From: Nitrospirota bacterium
Lineage (GTDB): Bacteria > Nitrospirota > Thermodesulfovibrionia > Thermodesulfovibrionales > Dissulfurispiraceae
Assembly: GCA_040752355.1 (NCBI GenBank)
Contig: JBFMHE010000006.1
Location: 76,721-108,720 of the forward strand
DNA: 32,000 nucleotides
Reading direction: 5' to 3'
The stretch's first letter is position 1. Each line of letters starts with the position of its first letter. Shown piece by piece: positions 12,159 through 15,382 of the stretch. Below the pieces are notes generated by a model. The model saw only the letters and a list, made by a program, of their open reading frames with translations, did not search any database and was not told where the DNA came from. The position numbers and the translations under genes were made by a program.

Positions 12159-13024
12159 TCGACCGGGTCGTCTCGCTGCTCGCCGGCACGCTCTTCCTGC
12201 GGCCCTACGTGGCCGCCTTTTTCATTGTCTATCTCCTCGGCTGCTCGCTCCACCTCGGCATGAAGCGGGCGCTGCTCTTCGGCCTGATCGGCTACGGCAT
12301 CGCCTGGCTTTCGGAGCTCTCGTCCATCCATACCGGCATCCCCTACGGCGATTACTTCTACATCGAGACGACCAGGGGACAGGAGCTCTGGGTCCTCGGG
12401 GTGCCGCTCATGGATTCGGCGAGCTATGTGTTCCTCGCCTATGCGAGCTACTCCATGGCGCTGCTCGTGACCGCCCCGGTCATCCTCGTTCGCAAGCTCC
12501 CGTACCTCCTCGAGACGAGGGCGCTCAGGAGCGGGCTCTCCGTACGCCTCCTCGGCGCGCTCTTCTTCGTCTATCTCGATATCATCATCGACCCTGTCGC
12601 CCTGCAGGGGAGCCGCTGGTTCCTCGGCCAGATCTACGGCTACCCGGAGCAGGGTGTCTATTTCGGCGTGCCGATCTCGAACTTCATCGGCTGGTTCATT
12701 GTCGGGTTCCTCATGATCTGCGCCCTCCAGCGGATCGACGCGTTTCTCTACCGGAGGAACGCGCCTGATTGCGCCGGCTACGCCTATCCCTGGCGCTATC
12801 TCATCGGGCCCGCTCTCTACGGCAGCGTGCTGCTCTTCAACCTGGCGGTCACCTTTGCGATTGAAGACTATACGCTCGGGTGGGTAGGGATCTTCATCAT
12901 ACTGATGCCGGCGGTGCTGCTCGTCCGGCTCGTCAGGATGAAGTACCTGCACGGAGCGAACGATGAAGCGCTGAAGGCTCACCTCAGGGACTTCCCCGAG
13001 GCTGCAGTCCCCGGCTCGCAGTAG
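12155..13024 (+). CDS. Polytopic membrane protein, DUF422 / carotenoid-biosynthesis-protein (CruF-like) family
   Basis: About 7-8 TM helices. The motif HTGIPYGDYFYIETTRGQELWVLGVPLMDSASY resembles the TG.PFG.Y.Y...GVP signature of PF04240-type proteins. Start is chosen at the ATGA overlap with the hpnH stop (12155); the alternative is 12134. Confidence 0.5.
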   Translation: MIDRVVSLLAGTLFLRPYVAAFFIVYLLGCSLHLGMKRALLFGLIGYGIAWLSELSSIHTGIPYGDYFYIETTRGQELWVLGVPLMDSASYVFLAYASYSMALLVTAPVILVRKLPYLLETRALRSGLSVRLLGALFFVYLDIIIDPVALQGSRWFLGQIYGYPEQGVYFGVPISNFIGWFIVGFLMICALQRIDAFLYRRNAPDCAGYAYPWRYLIGPALYGSVLLFNLAVTFAIEDYTLGWVGIFIILMPAVLLVRLVRMKYLHGANDEALKAHLRDFPEAAVPGSQ

Positions 13025-13791
13025 GACTGCCGCATCCCGCTCAGGGCCTGCACCGCGCGCCAGAGCTGCATCGAGGCGGTCCGCGCGTTACGCCCCATTC
13101 TTATGCTGCAGGGAATGAGCCGGGGGTTCAGCAGGAGCCTGCGGAGGGCGCGGGAGGACCGGTATACGCCCTGCTCGTCCGTTACCGCAAAGAGCTCGGG
13201 GGGAATATCTTCCTCCGCGCTGTCGGTAACCGCCCGCACCGCCAGGAAGGGGATATCCTTGTTCACGGCATAGCGGGCCAGGGGATAGGTCTCCATATCG
13301 CATACGGGATGGGGGAGATCTTTCGGTATATGCGGCGCGAGAGCAGCCTTCGTCATCCTCTCGCCGATGGTGATAATGCTGCCCTCGCTGGCATCGAGCA
13401 TGCGGGCAATGCAGCGGACCGCTCCCCCTGCATCGGGGAGCTGGAGCGTATCTTTTATCATTGGTATCATCGGCATCCCGGGAGCGCCCGCCACGAGAAG
13501 GGAGACGCTCCGCGCGATGACGAGATCGCCGGTCGAAAGCCCGGGCCGCAGAGCGCCGCCGAACCCTATCGAGACGAGGCATCCGGGCGCATACGCATTG
13601 CAGACCTGCTCTACTGCGGCTTCGGCATTGCGCACTCCCATGCCGGTCCGGACTATGATGAGCTCATGAGCAGCGCAGGAACCGGAATACAGCGTAAAAG
13701 GAGGCGCCTTCGCGCGCAGCCTCACCGCAGCGGTCTTTCTTTTTATCTGCGCGATCTCCTGGGGGAATGCGGCAAACAGGGCTATCTTCAT
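12979..13791 (-). CDS. hpnG: Hopanoid-associated PNP/MTAN-family nucleosidase HpnG
   Basis: MKIALFAAFPQE...IIVRTGMGVRNAEAA...SIGFGGAL shows a PNP_UDP_1-type fold. Start is taken at the internal Met (13791), preceded by GGGAAG; the ORF track start is 13845. Convergent 46-nt overlap with the DUF422 gene. Confidence 0.7.
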   Translation of the reverse strand: MKIALFAAFPQEIAQIKRKTAAVRLRAKAPPFTLYSGSCAAHELIIVRTGMGVRNAEAAVEQVCNAYAPGCLVSIGFGGALRPGLSTGDLVIARSVSLLVAGAPGMPMIPMIKDTLQLPDAGGAVRCIARMLDASEGSIITIGERMTKAALAPHIPKDLPHPVCDMETYPLARYAVNKDIPFLAVRAVTDSAEEDIPPELFAVTDEQGVYRSSRALRRLLLNPRLIPCSIRMGRNARTASMQLWRAVQALSGMRQSYCEPGTAASGKSLR

Positions 13792-13893
13792 CTTCCCGGC
13801 ACGCTCGGCGCTGAATAACGGTCCATCGGCAAACGAGCACGTCATAAAAATTATAGCAGCTCAATCTCCACAGGGCCACAACCTAATGCAGTA

Positions 13894-14160
13894 GGGGTGT
13901 AATAAAAAGGTGACAAGAGGGAGGCAAGGCGGAGGAGGGGAAGGGGGTAGGGGAGGAGCAAATCGGGAGTATTTCGTGACGGCTCTTAGCGAAATGGAGC
14001 GTTAGGCTGCAGCACCTGTCTGAGGTCGGTGCGACCGAGTTGTGCTGCGGCAGCGTAATGAGCTTAGAGCCGTAGAAATCTCCCGTCTGAGCGGAGCCCC
14101 TGCCCTCTTCCCCGGCACCACATTGAGTGAGATGCTTGCCACCACCTTATAATTACACCC
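13894..14160 (+). other. About 267-nt imperfect foldback: candidate structured RNA or palindromic MITE
   Basis: Pairings read directly from the sequence. GGGTGTAAT 13895-13903 pairs with ATTACACCC 14152-14160. AAGGTG 13907-12 pairs with CACCTT 14143-48. GGCAAG 13923-28 pairs with CTTGCC 14135-40. GGGGAAGGGGG 13937-47 pairs with CCCTCTTCCCC 14103-13 (one G-U). GGGAG/ATTTC 13965-75 pairs with GAAAT/CTCCC 14075-84. ACGGCTCTTAGC 13979-90 pairs with GCTTAGAGCCGT 14062-73. GCTGCAGCAC 14006-15 pairs with GTGCTGCGGC 14042-51 (one U-G). The apical hairpin is GGTCG-GTG-CGACC at 14024-36. No ORF. Confidence 0.5.
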
Positions 14161-14218
14161 AAGTAGTTAATGCAAGTGCTTCATTGCATTTGTCCCTGAT
14201 TTCTGCTGTGATTTAAGT

Positions 14219-15382
14219 ATGATCGAGACTATTCTGGTGCTGCTCATTGCAGGCGGGAGCCTTTACCAGCTCTTTTCGCTCTTCTGCATCGTCTCTTTCT
14301 TCGGGCCCGGGATCACCGCGCAGGAAGAGGACACCGCGCTTCCCGCAGTATCCCTGCTGAAGCCCCTCTGCGGCACGGACCCGGAGCTGGAGAAGAACAT
14401 AAGGAGCTTCTGCGATCAGGACTATCCCGAATACGAAGTGCTCCTCGGATTTACCGACCCCGATGACAGCGGCCTGCCCGTTGCACGAGAGCACGCGCGC
14501 TCTCCGGAATGCATGCTCCGCGTTGTCGTAAGCTCCGGGACTCTCGGAACGAACCGCAAAGTATCCAACCTGCAGGGCCTCGCAGAGGCGGCGCAGTATC
14601 CGCTCCTGGCGATCAGCGACAGCGACATGAGAGCAGAGCGTACGTACCTTCGGCGGATCATTGAAGAATACCGGGCCGGCCGCCGGCGCGGGAGCAACGT
14701 CGGGCTGGTAACTTCACTCTACAAGATTTCCGATCCCCGCACCCCCGGCGCCGCTCTCGAGTCGCTCACGCTCGCCCTCGATTTCATACCCGCCGTGCTC
14801 GCGGTAGAACGCATGGAAGGGGTCACCTTCGGCCTGGGCGCTTCGATGCTCCTCTCGAAGCAGGCCCTCGAGGAGGTCGGGGGCTTCCCGGCCATCGCCA
14901 ACCACCTCGCCGACGACTACCAGATCGGCAACCGCTTATCGAAAAAGGGGTACGCCGTCGTCCTCTCGAAGTACGTGCTCGAAGACATTGCGGGCCCGAT
15001 GCGCATTGACGATCATGTCACCCATCAGCTCAGATGGGCGCGCACCTACCGGGCGTGCAGGCCGAAGGGTTACTGGGGGTACGGCGTCACCTATATCGTC
15101 CCCCTCGCCCTCCTGCTCCTCGCGGTCGAGGGGCCGACGCCTCGCGCGCTCTTGCTGTTCGGCGGGACCCTGGCGCTGAGACTGCTTACGGCGTTTGCGG
15201 TCTATCGGCGCATCATCCGCGCTCAGCGATGGCTGCGGTGGCTTCCGCTCATTCCGCTGAAGGATATACTGAGCTTCGGCATCTGGTTCCGGAGCCTCTG
15301 GGGGAATACGGTTCGCTGGAGAGGAGCGACGTTCCGCGTAGTAAAGGATGGATTGATCGAGCCGCTCCCCGAACGGCGCTGA
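14219..15382 (+). CDS. hpnI: Hopanoid-associated family-2/21 glycosyltransferase HpnI
   Basis: N-terminal TM helix, then PAVSLLKPLCGTDPELEKNIRSFCDQDYPEYEVLLG (ceramide-glucosyltransferase-like GT21 signature), ISDSDM (DxD) and QLRWARTYR (Q/RxxRW-like). 387 aa. Confidence 0.75.
   Translation: MIETILVLLIAGGSLYQLFSLFCIVSFFGPGITAQEEDTALPAVSLLKPLCGTDPELEKNIRSFCDQDYPEYEVLLGFTDPDDSGLPVAREHARSPECMLRVVVSSGTLGTNRKVSNLQGLAEAAQYPLLAISDSDMRAERTYLRRIIEEYRAGRRRGSNVGLVTSLYKISDPRTPGAALESLTLALDFIPAVLAVERMEGVTFGLGASMLLSKQALEEVGGFPAIANHLADDYQIGNRLSKKGYAVVLSKYVLEDIAGPMRIDDHVTHQLRWARTYRACRPKGYWGYGVTYIVPLALLLLAVEGPTPRALLLFGGTLALRLLTAFAVYRRIIRAQRWLRWLPLIPLKDILSFGIWFRSLWGNTVRWRGATFRVVKDGLIEPLPERR

Follow-up and report, generated by a model that had tools for sequence, protein, structure and literature searches.

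Bacterial MITEs are usually restricted to one lineage, with conserved ends and a middle that drifts freely. The Correia element of Neisseria, ERIC of the enterobacteria, RUP and BOX of pneumococcus and QMITE of Coxiella are short, intergenic, multi-copy and transposase-less; their transcripts form long hairpins and can alter the expression of neighbouring genes or yield small RNAs (PMC3184786, PMC10969869). In Geobacter uraniireducens Rf4, Chunjie (Chen et al. 2008; summaries in PMC3184786 and PMC10969869) is an intergenic MITE of 178-235 bp with about 38 copies, 21-bp terminal inverted repeats (TIRs), 9-bp direct repeats and hairpin folds of -98 to -130 kcal/mol. The ISKra4 group of transposons has inverted repeats of 18-39 bp with a terminal C and direct repeats of 8-9 bp, is found in Nitrospirae, and occasionally carries passenger genes (PMC3942029). 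The literature searched contained no description of MITE derivatives of this group.

The window, that is, the whole 32,000-nucleotide stretch of Nitrospirota DNA that was analysed, contains a 267-nt foldback between two divergent genes. With high probability this foldback is a mobile MITE in which an ISKra4-type shell encloses an independently conserved structured core. The features of the locus are the following.

12979-13845, minus strand: neighbouring hpnG-like PNP_UDP_1 phosphorylase gene
13888-13893, no strand: possible left copy of a decayed target-site duplication, CAGTAG, from comparison of the flanks
13894-14160, plus strand: the whole non-autonomous element (MITE), 267 nt, one interrupted rod, from its sequence, its folds and a second copy
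13894-13942, plus strand: left shell, consisting of the ISKra4-group terminal inverted repeat GGGGTGTAATAAAAAGGTGACAAG (aligned with the termini of the C11 cassette and the G083 element), then AGGGAGGCA, an RBS-like remnant from the left end of the parent element, then a purine-rich outer stem
13943-14110, plus strand: conserved structured core, about 165 nt, with 10 helices between invariant loops, from the covariance model, the consensus structure and covariation
Within 13943-14110, plus strand: the invariant loops of the core, GAGCGA; (U)AGCGAAAUGGAGCG; UGUCUGAG-[hairpin]-CGAGUU; AGCGNAAUGAGC; UGAGCGA
14020-14047, plus strand: apical domain with the most invariant motifs, namely UGUCUGAG, the hairpin GGUCG-GUG-CGACC, and CGAGUU
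14111-14160, plus strand: right shell, consisting of a pyrimidine-rich outer stem and the right terminal inverted repeat CTTGCCACCACCTTATAATTACACCC, from alignment
14161-14166, no strand: possible right copy of the decayed target-site duplication, AAGTAG, from comparison of the flanks
14219-15382, plus strand: neighbouring hpnI-like family-21 glycosyltransferase gene

The first-pass annotation had described a foldback with paired termini (GGGGTGTAAT and ATTACACCC), whose 5' arm is rich in G (GGAGGAGGGGAAGGGGGTAGGGGAGGAG) and whose apex is a GGTCG-GTG-CGACC hairpin, free of ORFs and situated in the hpnG/hpnI divergent spacer. This description is confirmed. The plus strand of 13894-14160 is predicted to fold as RNA into one interrupted rod of -134.1 kcal/mol, against -93.5 +/- 4.7 kcal/mol for shuffled sequences (z -8.71; none of 200 was as good), and the minus strand reaches -117.6 kcal/mol (z -8.20). 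The interval holds no ORF of at least 60 aa, and a consensus scan of 13700-14400 predicted neither a sigma-70-like promoter nor an intrinsic terminator. The G-rich arm contains several G-runs and belongs to a lineage-specific outer region that is not conserved in the family; the G-quadruplex once suggested for it found no support. The core matches no described RNA family in Rfam 15: the element gave no match at E<=1 in a search of the window region, nor did five element loci from diverse lineages at E<=0.1, and the resemblance to 6S RNA raised earlier gained no support. Weak Rfam matches to Twister-P5 and to an IRES model fall outside the element and far below threshold.

At the level of sequence, the terminal ~50 nt at either side are shown to be ends that belong to a transposon of the ISKra4 group (Mutator-like DDE). 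The terminal inverted repeats, aligned with those of other copies, read GGGGTGTAATAAAAAGGTG... and ...CACCTTATAATTACACCC. A terminus of about 27 nt, which starts with GGGTGT, ends with ACACCC and fits the inverted repeats of 18-39 bp with a terminal C that define ISKra4 ends, is common to the window element and to a 2.7-kb transposase-bearing element of a related genome (G083:C59:121064-123801). The latter encodes an ISKra4-family transposase (NF033572, 117.7 + 86.1 bits; Pfam UPF0236), the gene of which is interrupted by the insertion of an IS256-type gene. It was found only through a search for the family and not by adjacency to the termini; all 11 GGGTGTRAT termini in G083 belong to short copies beside housekeeping genes, and none is next to a transposase. 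The same terminus bounds a 4-kb passenger cassette (C11) in the window's genome, which is flanked by a 9-bp duplication, GGACCTGCG, and has at its end an ORF with 65% identity (E 1e-39) to the N-terminus of the G083 transposase. No ISKra4 transposase gene was found in the window's genome. In the 68 genomes of the family, traces of such genes occur in only 10, mostly as fragments, and their co-occurrence with the core is poor. Only one is intact. From the shared ends we infer mobilisation in trans, in which an ISKra4-group transposase would bind at the ~27-nt inverted repeats and the insertion of the unit would duplicate 8-9 bp of the target. The window copy is probably stranded, since no such transposase gene is now present in its genome.

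Two insertions in genome G006 have empty orthologous counterparts in the same-genus genomes G073, G075, G076 and G077. Target duplications of 8-10 bp flank four of the five G006 copies, and duplications of 5 bp, the left and right sides of which vary together, flank three of the eight copies in G015. Empty orthologous sites and target duplications of 5-10 bp together show that the element is mobile. Repeats close to the 8-9 bp of ISKra4 elements flank the C11 cassette (9 bp) and the copy G010_C8 (9-10 bp, ACCCGACGCT); those of the copy on contig C44 (CCTGCT) measure 6-8 bp and those of the window copy only 5-6 bp, where the flanks CAGTAG and AAGTAG match at five of six positions, which is weak taken alone. 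An automated scan of 118 copies found 5 duplications against 2.3 in the control, barely above it. Traits of a MITE that the window element itself shows are a length of 267 nt, below the limit of about 500 bp, without coding capacity, terminal inverted repeats, dispersed copies, and ends common to a transposase-encoding element. The palindromic MITE that the first-pass annotation had offered as its alternative is upheld by ISKra4-group termini, target-site duplications and empty sites.

Matches in the window's genome lie at four places by BLAST/nhmmer, and the covariance model recovers three full cores. In all, this genome has two full copies of shell and core, one core in another shell, two end fragments and one cassette with the same ends. 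The second full-length copy (C44:57726-57989) is 84% identical to the window element, and fragments of the right end alone lie at C43:30930-30990 and C6:~41367-41406. Of the two cores outside the window, one is situated upstream of a tRNA gene and the other, antisense, separates the genes for an efflux adaptor and an ABC ATPase. Across genomes, the core is present in 36 of the 68 genomes of the window's family (1 to 40+ copies each), in 38 of 151 genomes of its phylum, and in 20 of the 23 genomes of one Geobacter family (up to 54 copies), the order of which has it in 38 of 151. Cultured hosts include G. argillaceus with 11 copies and Acidithiobacillus marinus SH with 8. Many of the genomes are MAGs with unreliable labels; a 'Nitrospinota' match was not counted as a separate phylum because the flanks on its contig are identical to those of a Thermodesulfovibrionales contig. 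True members score 85-165 bits with the covariance model R1. Single matches in Gemmatimonadota and Aminicenantes MAGs score 74, 51 and 48 bits. Plasmid records and viral contigs gave no core matches, and the core motifs are absent from the lists of 'multicopy nucleotide sequences' in the supplements of Geobacter genome papers.

At least four unrelated sets of termini surround the core in different lineages, of the GGGTGTRAT, GCAATTCAGACAGTGTAAT, CCTRAAAA and ATCCGTGAGG types, and 77 of 111 copies carry other ends. The core is better conserved than any of these sets. Elsewhere, its neighbours are unrelated (TilS, pyruvate kinase, GpsA, histidine kinases, radical-SAM enzymes). All-against-all clustering of the ORFs around ~110 copies gave no partner gene; the clusters were either orthologous loci or big families of paralogues, namely histidine kinases, radical-SAM enzymes and ABC ATPases.

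The central ~165 nt are shown to be a separately conserved module, of which only the plus strand folds into a rod of short covarying helices. R1 matches the window at 13944-14108 (G000:C41:90664-90828) with 155.7 bits and E 2.6e-29. RNAalifold of 13 sequences gave 55 pairs, 42 of them compensatory. In an alignment of 84 sequences, 91.6% of the cells are paired, against 32-45% when the partners are slid; double compensatory changes occur in 50 of the 55 base pairs, and the covariation score is 0.623 against ~0.08, with none of 500 shuffles as high. Helix sequences diverge widely between lineages while the pairing is kept. The excess of G-U/U-G over A-C/C-A pairs across the family (236 vs 67, 3.5-fold) indicates that one strand folds, and with the more stable fold of the plus strand it sustains the earlier choice of that strand. 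It had also been proposed that many copies would mean a MITE and a single covarying copy an RNA. Each half of this test returned its own result, many copies together with a very strongly covarying central 165 nt, and the either-or did not hold.

The least variable positions of the core are not in its helices but in the mismatched, purine-rich loops in which G and A are juxtaposed. In the internal loops, the two arms of one strand share a motif (AGCGA...AGCGA; GNA opposite GNA) and are not reverse complements of each other. Apical loops are mostly closed by G and A: GNA in 37 and GNNA in 27 of 83 (together 64), with GNRA tetraloops in only four. The apical domain is also a free-standing module in G092. 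Three copies of equal score in that genome were considered as a larger autonomous unit, which was dismissed when they proved to be a 506-nt non-coding composite. On inspection, none of k-turn, hammerhead, sarcin-ricin and the plasmid single-strand origin (CS-6 TAGCGT) fitted the loops.

Taken together, a MITE has probably landed in the divergent promoter spacer of hpnG and hpnI, where it displaces the upstream promoter DNA of both genes; no evidence was found that the window copy regulates either of them. The core would be the unit under selection, ferried by whichever transposon ends are locally usable, and the constraint on it would be a single-stranded fold that is independent of any one transposase. 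Our best, tentative guess is that the core has a role at the RNA level: the fold would work in an RNA whose transcription comes from read-through or starts at promoters of the transposon ends, and its loops would bind a widely conserved host factor. The mixed orientation of the copies is awkward for read-through RNA, as those between tandem genes lean two to one towards antisense (13 same-sense vs 26 antisense). It is with similar reserve that we suggest the fuller reading, in which the core is an undescribed functional module, likeliest an RNA with invariant G-A-rich loops to which a conserved cellular factor binds, and has crossed phyla inside unrelated MITE shells.

The strongest competitor, somewhat less probable than the RNA reading, is that the core acts as folded single-stranded or cruciform DNA, recognised for example in replication, repair or transposition, so that the rod is needed for propagation. 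The orientation of the copies is not tied to the transcription of their neighbours, and with DNA parameters the plus strand still folds well (-63.3 kcal/mol, z -7.05; minus strand -55.6 kcal/mol, z -6.27). GNA triloops with C-G closure are characteristic of very stable DNA hairpins, and DNA can accommodate sheared G-A pairs and G-T wobbles. The dominance of C(GNA)G triloops and G..A-closed tetraloops among the apical loops, with so few GNRA loops, therefore favours single-stranded DNA. If the spread of master copies depended on the core, its stronger conservation relative to the termini would also follow. Against this, the only shell with an identified enzyme uses a DDE Mutator-like transposase, and such transposases act on double-stranded ends and do not require a central hairpin. 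Neither HUH/Y1 transposases nor relaxases nor other single-strand enzymes recur beside the copies, and the core is missing from the plasmid and viral sequences searched. In the complete Geobacter genome G307, an informal look, with the origin taken at position 1, showed no clean switch of strand between the chromosome halves.

Much less probable is an account in which conservation and covariation have no function, the inverted repeats being kept alike by the transposase or by homogenisation of the arms in a lineage that has recently spread horizontally. MITEs in general form stable hairpins through their inverted repeats alone (PMC10969869), and both the near-identical subfamilies within genomes, as in G015, and the patchy distribution are what recent spread predicts. 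Homogenising arms, however, would erase mismatches, and the mismatched loops are the least variable part of the core. A protein reading inverted repeats would meet two different sequences where one motif stands in the same strand of either arm, and the termini that a transposase reads differ completely between lineages whereas the core does not. The excess of G-U over A-C pairs and the persistence of pairing through double changes in nearly all base pairs speak against the same account. The first-pass annotation's own preference, a structured RNA that serves hpnI or the hopanoid locus in cis as a 5' leader or regulator, draws on a folding strand that is the more stable one and is co-oriented with hpnI, whose start codon lies 58 nt past the element end, but it is very improbable and largely refuted by the distribution, since two further copies in the same genome are at a tRNA gene and, antisense, in an efflux/ABC operon, hundreds elsewhere have unrelated neighbours, no tie to hopanoid genes and inconsistent orientation, the same-genus genome G001 lacks both the element and an hpnI homologue, and no promoter is predicted upstream of or inside the element.

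With the MITE reading preferred, it would be wrong to annotate the hairpin in front of hpnI as a riboswitch or leader for hopanoid genes, since it is a mobile element that is probably stranded. Nitrospirota and Geobacter genomes contain hundreds of intergenic hairpins that are otherwise puzzling, and the R1 covariance model could serve to mask or annotate them. The nature of the selection that favours a strand-specific fold within a DNA transposon has become a testable question.

Compared with known systems, the window element is nearest in its shell to the ISKra4 group (p-MULT 4, the prokaryotic Mutator-like DDE elements; Guerillot et al. 2014, PMC3942029), with which it has in common ~27-nt inverted repeats and GGG...CCC ends; duplications of 8-10 bp are seen at other copies. 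The occurrence of the group in Nitrospirae and the passenger-carrying relative in the window's own genome agree with this placement, and so does the position in a spacer beside promoters, as insertion upstream of sigma-A promoters is reported for the group (PMC3942029). The window element differs in having no transposase and in its conserved central core, which is absent from the parent element. Chunjie resembles it in class and appearance, and its host genus also carries the core family, but it is a different sequence family with other TIRs and without the core motifs. Tried as a member, a published copy (NC_009483:2632106-2632324; direct repeat ACGACCGGT, TIR CAGCGTTGTCCGGTTTGGTTT) scored only 10.7 bits with R1, against 85-165 for members. 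Correia, ERIC, RUP, BOX and QMITE are likewise short, multi-copy, hairpin-forming and transposase-less, but they are confined to a genus or family and conserved at their ends. In the window family it is the middle of the MITE that is conserved, with systematic compensatory change of the kind normally used to nominate functional RNAs. This core recurs with varied ends in at least three phyla, including the cultivable Geobacter argillaceus and Acidithiobacillus marinus. 6S RNA has a similar rod-like outline, while the window element is multi-copy and mobile, has no large central bubble and carries other conserved motifs. The eukaryotic CORE-, V- and Deu-SINEs have a conserved central domain common to families with differing ends and different mobilising partners. 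The core would be analogous to this shared centre, although SINEs move by reverse transcription, for which the window family offers no evidence, its identified shell being that of a DNA transposon. If the core is indeed functional, it would be a bacterial counterpart of the SINE central domains, a MITE in which the cargo and not the ends is under selection.

The foldback at window 13894-14160 is a repeated, mobile, non-coding element. Its outer ~50 nt on each side, the shell, is of the ISKra4 type, and its inner ~165 nt (window 13943-14110), the core, is strand-specific, covarying and common to different shells and phyla. The element is flanked by two genes of the hopanoid locus:

12979-13845, minus strand: hpnG-like phosphorylase-superfamily gene
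13894-14160, plus strand: foldback element, 267 nt, in agreement with its sequence as first described
14219-15382, plus strand: hpnI-like family-21 glycosyltransferase gene

All 267 nt fold into a single interrupted rod. As RNA, the plus strand has a folding energy of -134.1 kcal/mol against -93.5 +/- 4.7 for shuffled sequences (z -8.71) and the minus strand of -117.6 kcal/mol (z -8.20); with DNA parameters the plus strand reaches -63.3 (z -7.05) and the minus strand -55.6 (z -6.27). The rod claimed in the first-pass annotation is real, its fold energy being far beyond chance. The Rfam 15 covariance models, proposed there as a check for a known RNA family, gave no match to the element at E<=1, and a scan for consensus promoters and terminators called none in the hpnG-hpnI spacer. 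Within the hpnG coding region, a weak Twister-P5 ribozyme match at window 13501-13544, plus strand (18.5 bits, E 0.38, where the gathering score is 37.6), is almost certainly due to chance.

The window's own assembly (3.57 Mb, 44 contigs) was searched with BLAST and nhmmer, and the termini were sought by a 9-mer scan. The relatives found are:

C44:57726-57989: second full-length copy, 84% identical, 60 nt upstream of a tRNA gene
C34: core-only relative sharing the inner ~155 nt, with different outer arms, between an efflux adaptor gene and an ABC ATPase gene and antisense to both
C43: right-end fragment of 61 nt (BLAST/nhmmer)
C6: second right-end fragment (9-mer scan)
G000 C11:51096-55149 (locus L018 1597-5650): cassette of ~4 kb with the element's ISKra4-type inverted repeats and 9 bp, GGACCTGCG, duplicated perfectly

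The covariance model of the core, R1, recognizes 3 core copies in this genome. The C11 cassette, which the 9-mer scan showed to be bracketed by the ~25-nt element ends with the duplication directly on both sides, encodes an AbiEi antitoxin/truncated AbiEii toxin pair, a cupin-domain protein, a RidA/L-PSP protein and an orphan 129-aa ORF. No transposase was found in it; the cassette is a passenger-carrying, transposase-less transposon.

A family search located an ISKra4-type transposase in the related genome G083. The element that bears it (2,738 bp, G083:C59:121064-123801, loci L188/L190) is bounded by GGGTGCAATTAAAAGTGAGGGCAAGTA and its inverted copy, and alignment A3 shows that its ~27-nt terminus is common to the window copy, the C44 copy, the C11 cassette and G010_C8. 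The ISKra4 assignment of the shell is supported by an RBS-like stretch of the parent element (AGGGAGGCA), retained in the left arm of the window copy, and by the 129-aa ORF at the cassette end, which shares 65% identity (E 1e-39) with the G083 transposase N-terminus and is, judging by this similarity, a remnant of it. The G083 element is broken by an IS256-family (Transposase_mut) gene, a nested insertion, and its reading frame changes from the N-terminal ORF to the catalytic part.

The ISKra4 group comprises Mutator-like DDE elements with inverted repeats of 18-39 bp that have a terminal C, and with direct repeats of 8-9 bp; they are found in Nitrospirae, carry passenger genes now and then and are often inserted 13-17 bp ahead of a sigma-A promoter (Guerillot et al., PMC3942029). 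All these features fit a copy in a divergent promoter spacer. A perfect TATAAT, not called by the consensus scan, precedes the hpnG start codon by 5 nt (window 13846-13893, minus strand), which would imply a leaderless or near-leaderless hpnG mRNA. A -35 box, if placed 16-18 nt further upstream, would begin ~15-17 nt from the left end of the element, a spacing loosely consistent with the insertion habit of the group. No ISKra4 transposase gene was found in the window's own genome, and only 10 of 68 genomes of its taxonomic family have traces of one, intact in G070 alone; the window copy is therefore probably stranded. The visible end of the G070 transposase element, GCAATTCAAAAC, resembles the shell GCAATTCAGACA of G006, a MAG of the same genus as G070 ('Nitrospirota bacterium MFD03726.bin.1.73') and a member of the window's family.

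The first-pass annotation had offered a palindromic MITE or repeat as its alternative, and many dispersed copies, ISKra4-type ends and empty sites bear this out. The near-identical copies of genome G015 have sharp ends at CCTAAAAACAGCAG... and ...CCGAATATAGG; their 5-bp flanks differ among copies and agree within a copy in three of eight cases (ATAAA, TTTAA, ATAAC). One G006 subfamily has 33-nt inverted ends, with 8-10-bp duplications in four of five copies. At two G006 insertions the flanks are only 20-112 nt apart in the same-genus genomes G073, G075, G076 and G077, and in the alignments of these sites the ~245-nt element is simply absent. An automated duplication scan of 118 copies was barely above control, which fits the usual decay in old copies and means that most core copies give no direct evidence of insertion mode. 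In two Geobacter MAGs from different species-level genomes (loci L075 and L107), a core copy occupies a shared site, a short way downstream of a gene pair for a MASE3 histidine kinase and a HemN-like radical-SAM protein; some insertions are therefore older than speciation. In locus L063 (G006:C3:199131-200092), a different repeat of ~170 nt (~599-768) lies directly beside a core copy. It has dozens of copies in G073 and G077, genomes without core copies, and forms another interspersed repeat family in the genus of G006, unrelated to the core.

The neighbours of the copies are unrelated and the orientation is mixed, which largely refutes the hpnI leader RNA that had been preferred; no transposase, reverse transcriptase or integrase recurs as a partner gene beside core copies. 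The proposed BLASTN comparison had set many copies, for a MITE, against a single covarying copy, for an RNA; there are many copies and strong covariation in the core, and only the single copy fell away.

Matches in related genomes are confined to the inner part of the query. Side by side, the copies have invariant motifs (GAGCGA, (T)AGCGAAATGGAGCG, TGTCTGAG-hairpin-CGAGTT, AGCGNAATGAGC and TGAGCGA), and the helices between them vary in sequence from copy to copy while complementarity is kept. RNAalifold on 13 copies gave 55 pairs, 42 of them with double compensatory changes. R1, run on 80 loci taken by an exact-pattern scan of named genomes, yielded 84 matches, nearly all full length. In the alignment of these matches, fitted to R1 so that the counts lean towards the structure, 91.6% of cells are paired against 32-45% with partners slid by 1-3 columns, both sides change in 50 of the 55 pairs, and the covariation score is 0.623 against ~0.08, reached by none of 500 shuffles. 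Two results speak for a real signal despite this fitting: the control with slid partners and the independent RNAalifold prediction. Among the core pairs, G-U/U-G (236) far outnumber A-C/C-A (67), and in the internal loops the two arms of one strand have the same purine-rich motif rather than reverse complements (A-GC-G facing A-GC-G, GAA facing GA, GNA facing GNA). The core signature is therefore the fold of one single strand, plus in the window; it is not that of a palindromic duplex recognized by a dimeric protein. The core tip tolerates insertions: the copy at G010:C41:2365-2579 (locus L011) has ~60 nt inserted in the apical loop, holding a GC-rich hairpin (GGGGTCCCCGAAA...TTTTCGGGGC).

The core is held within several kinds of ends:

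GGGTGTRAT ends: the window's genome, G010, G083 and a Nitrospira MAG
GCAATTCAGACAGTGTAAT ends: G006
CCTRAAAA ends with 5-bp duplications: G015 and G017
(TGA)ATCCGTGAGG ends: Geobacter
a further end type: the C34 copy of the window's own genome

Four end patterns were scored, and 77 of 111 core copies fit none of them. A composite non-coding repeat of 506 nt in G092 (locus L184 4026-4531, G092:C3, also G092:C4 and C5; 3 copies, ~96% identical) includes a diverged full core and an inverted apical module that stands alone (helix-TGTCTGAG-hairpin-CGAGTT), ~70 nt upstream of that core; the pairing recurs in several genomes of that family. Conservation is thus higher in the core than in any of its termini, opposite to what a normal MITE shows.

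Core copies occur in 36 of 68 genomes of the window's family (Thermodesulfovibrionales-type Nitrospirota; 1 to at least 40 copies each) and in 38 of 151 sampled from the phylum. They are also present in 20 of 23 genomes of one Geobacter family (up to 54 copies), in 38 of 151 sampled from its order, in the cultured Geobacter argillaceus ATCC BAA-1139 (11 copies) and Acidithiobacillus marinus SH (8), and in one Nitrospira MAG (13). The distribution is patchy even inside genera, and many copies lie at contig ends. IMG/VR viral contigs and PLSDB plasmids gave no matches. One copy in a MAG labelled Nitrospinota (KR13_N2.mb.31, L104) has element ends and 14-nt flanks identical on both sides to those in the Thermodesulfovibrionales MAG MFD12052 (L114), which suggests a mislabelled or mis-binned MAG, or one organism under two labels; because of this exact match, Nitrospinota is not counted as a separate phylum. 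From isolate genomes and many MAGs, the host range includes at least Nitrospirota, Geobacterales and Acidithiobacillia.

A transposase of the ISKra4 group, acting in trans, would move the shell. The core may be selected for its single-stranded fold independently of the transposase, because transposase-specific ends are interchangeable, and its invariant G-A-rich loops could bind a widely conserved factor. Action of the core as RNA is slightly ahead of action as single-stranded or cruciform DNA. Purine-rich asymmetric loops are typical protein-binding RNA motifs, and DDE transposases are not known to require a central hairpin. Folding of MITE transcripts, and small RNAs derived from them, have been described (PMC3184786, PMC10969869). 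In favour of DNA, the orientation of the core is mixed, leaning 2:1 antisense to neighbouring genes, and the apical loops are mostly C(GNA)G triloops (37 of 83), GNRA tetraloops being found in only 4 of 83.

The core is absent from the Rfam families, against which the window copy and other loci were scanned, and from the tables of multicopy sequences for G. metallireducens and G. bemidjiensis. A known Geobacter MITE, Chunjie, is 178-235 bp long with 9-bp direct repeats (PMC3184786, PMC10969869). Its published copy from G. uraniireducens Rf4 (direct repeat ACGACCGGT) scores 10.7 bits with R1, and the identification with Chunjie was rejected: both families occur in Geobacter, but Chunjie has terminal inverted repeats of its own and no core. 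The element described here holds an undescribed, cross-phylum, covarying structured core, a more interesting content than that of an ordinary MITE.
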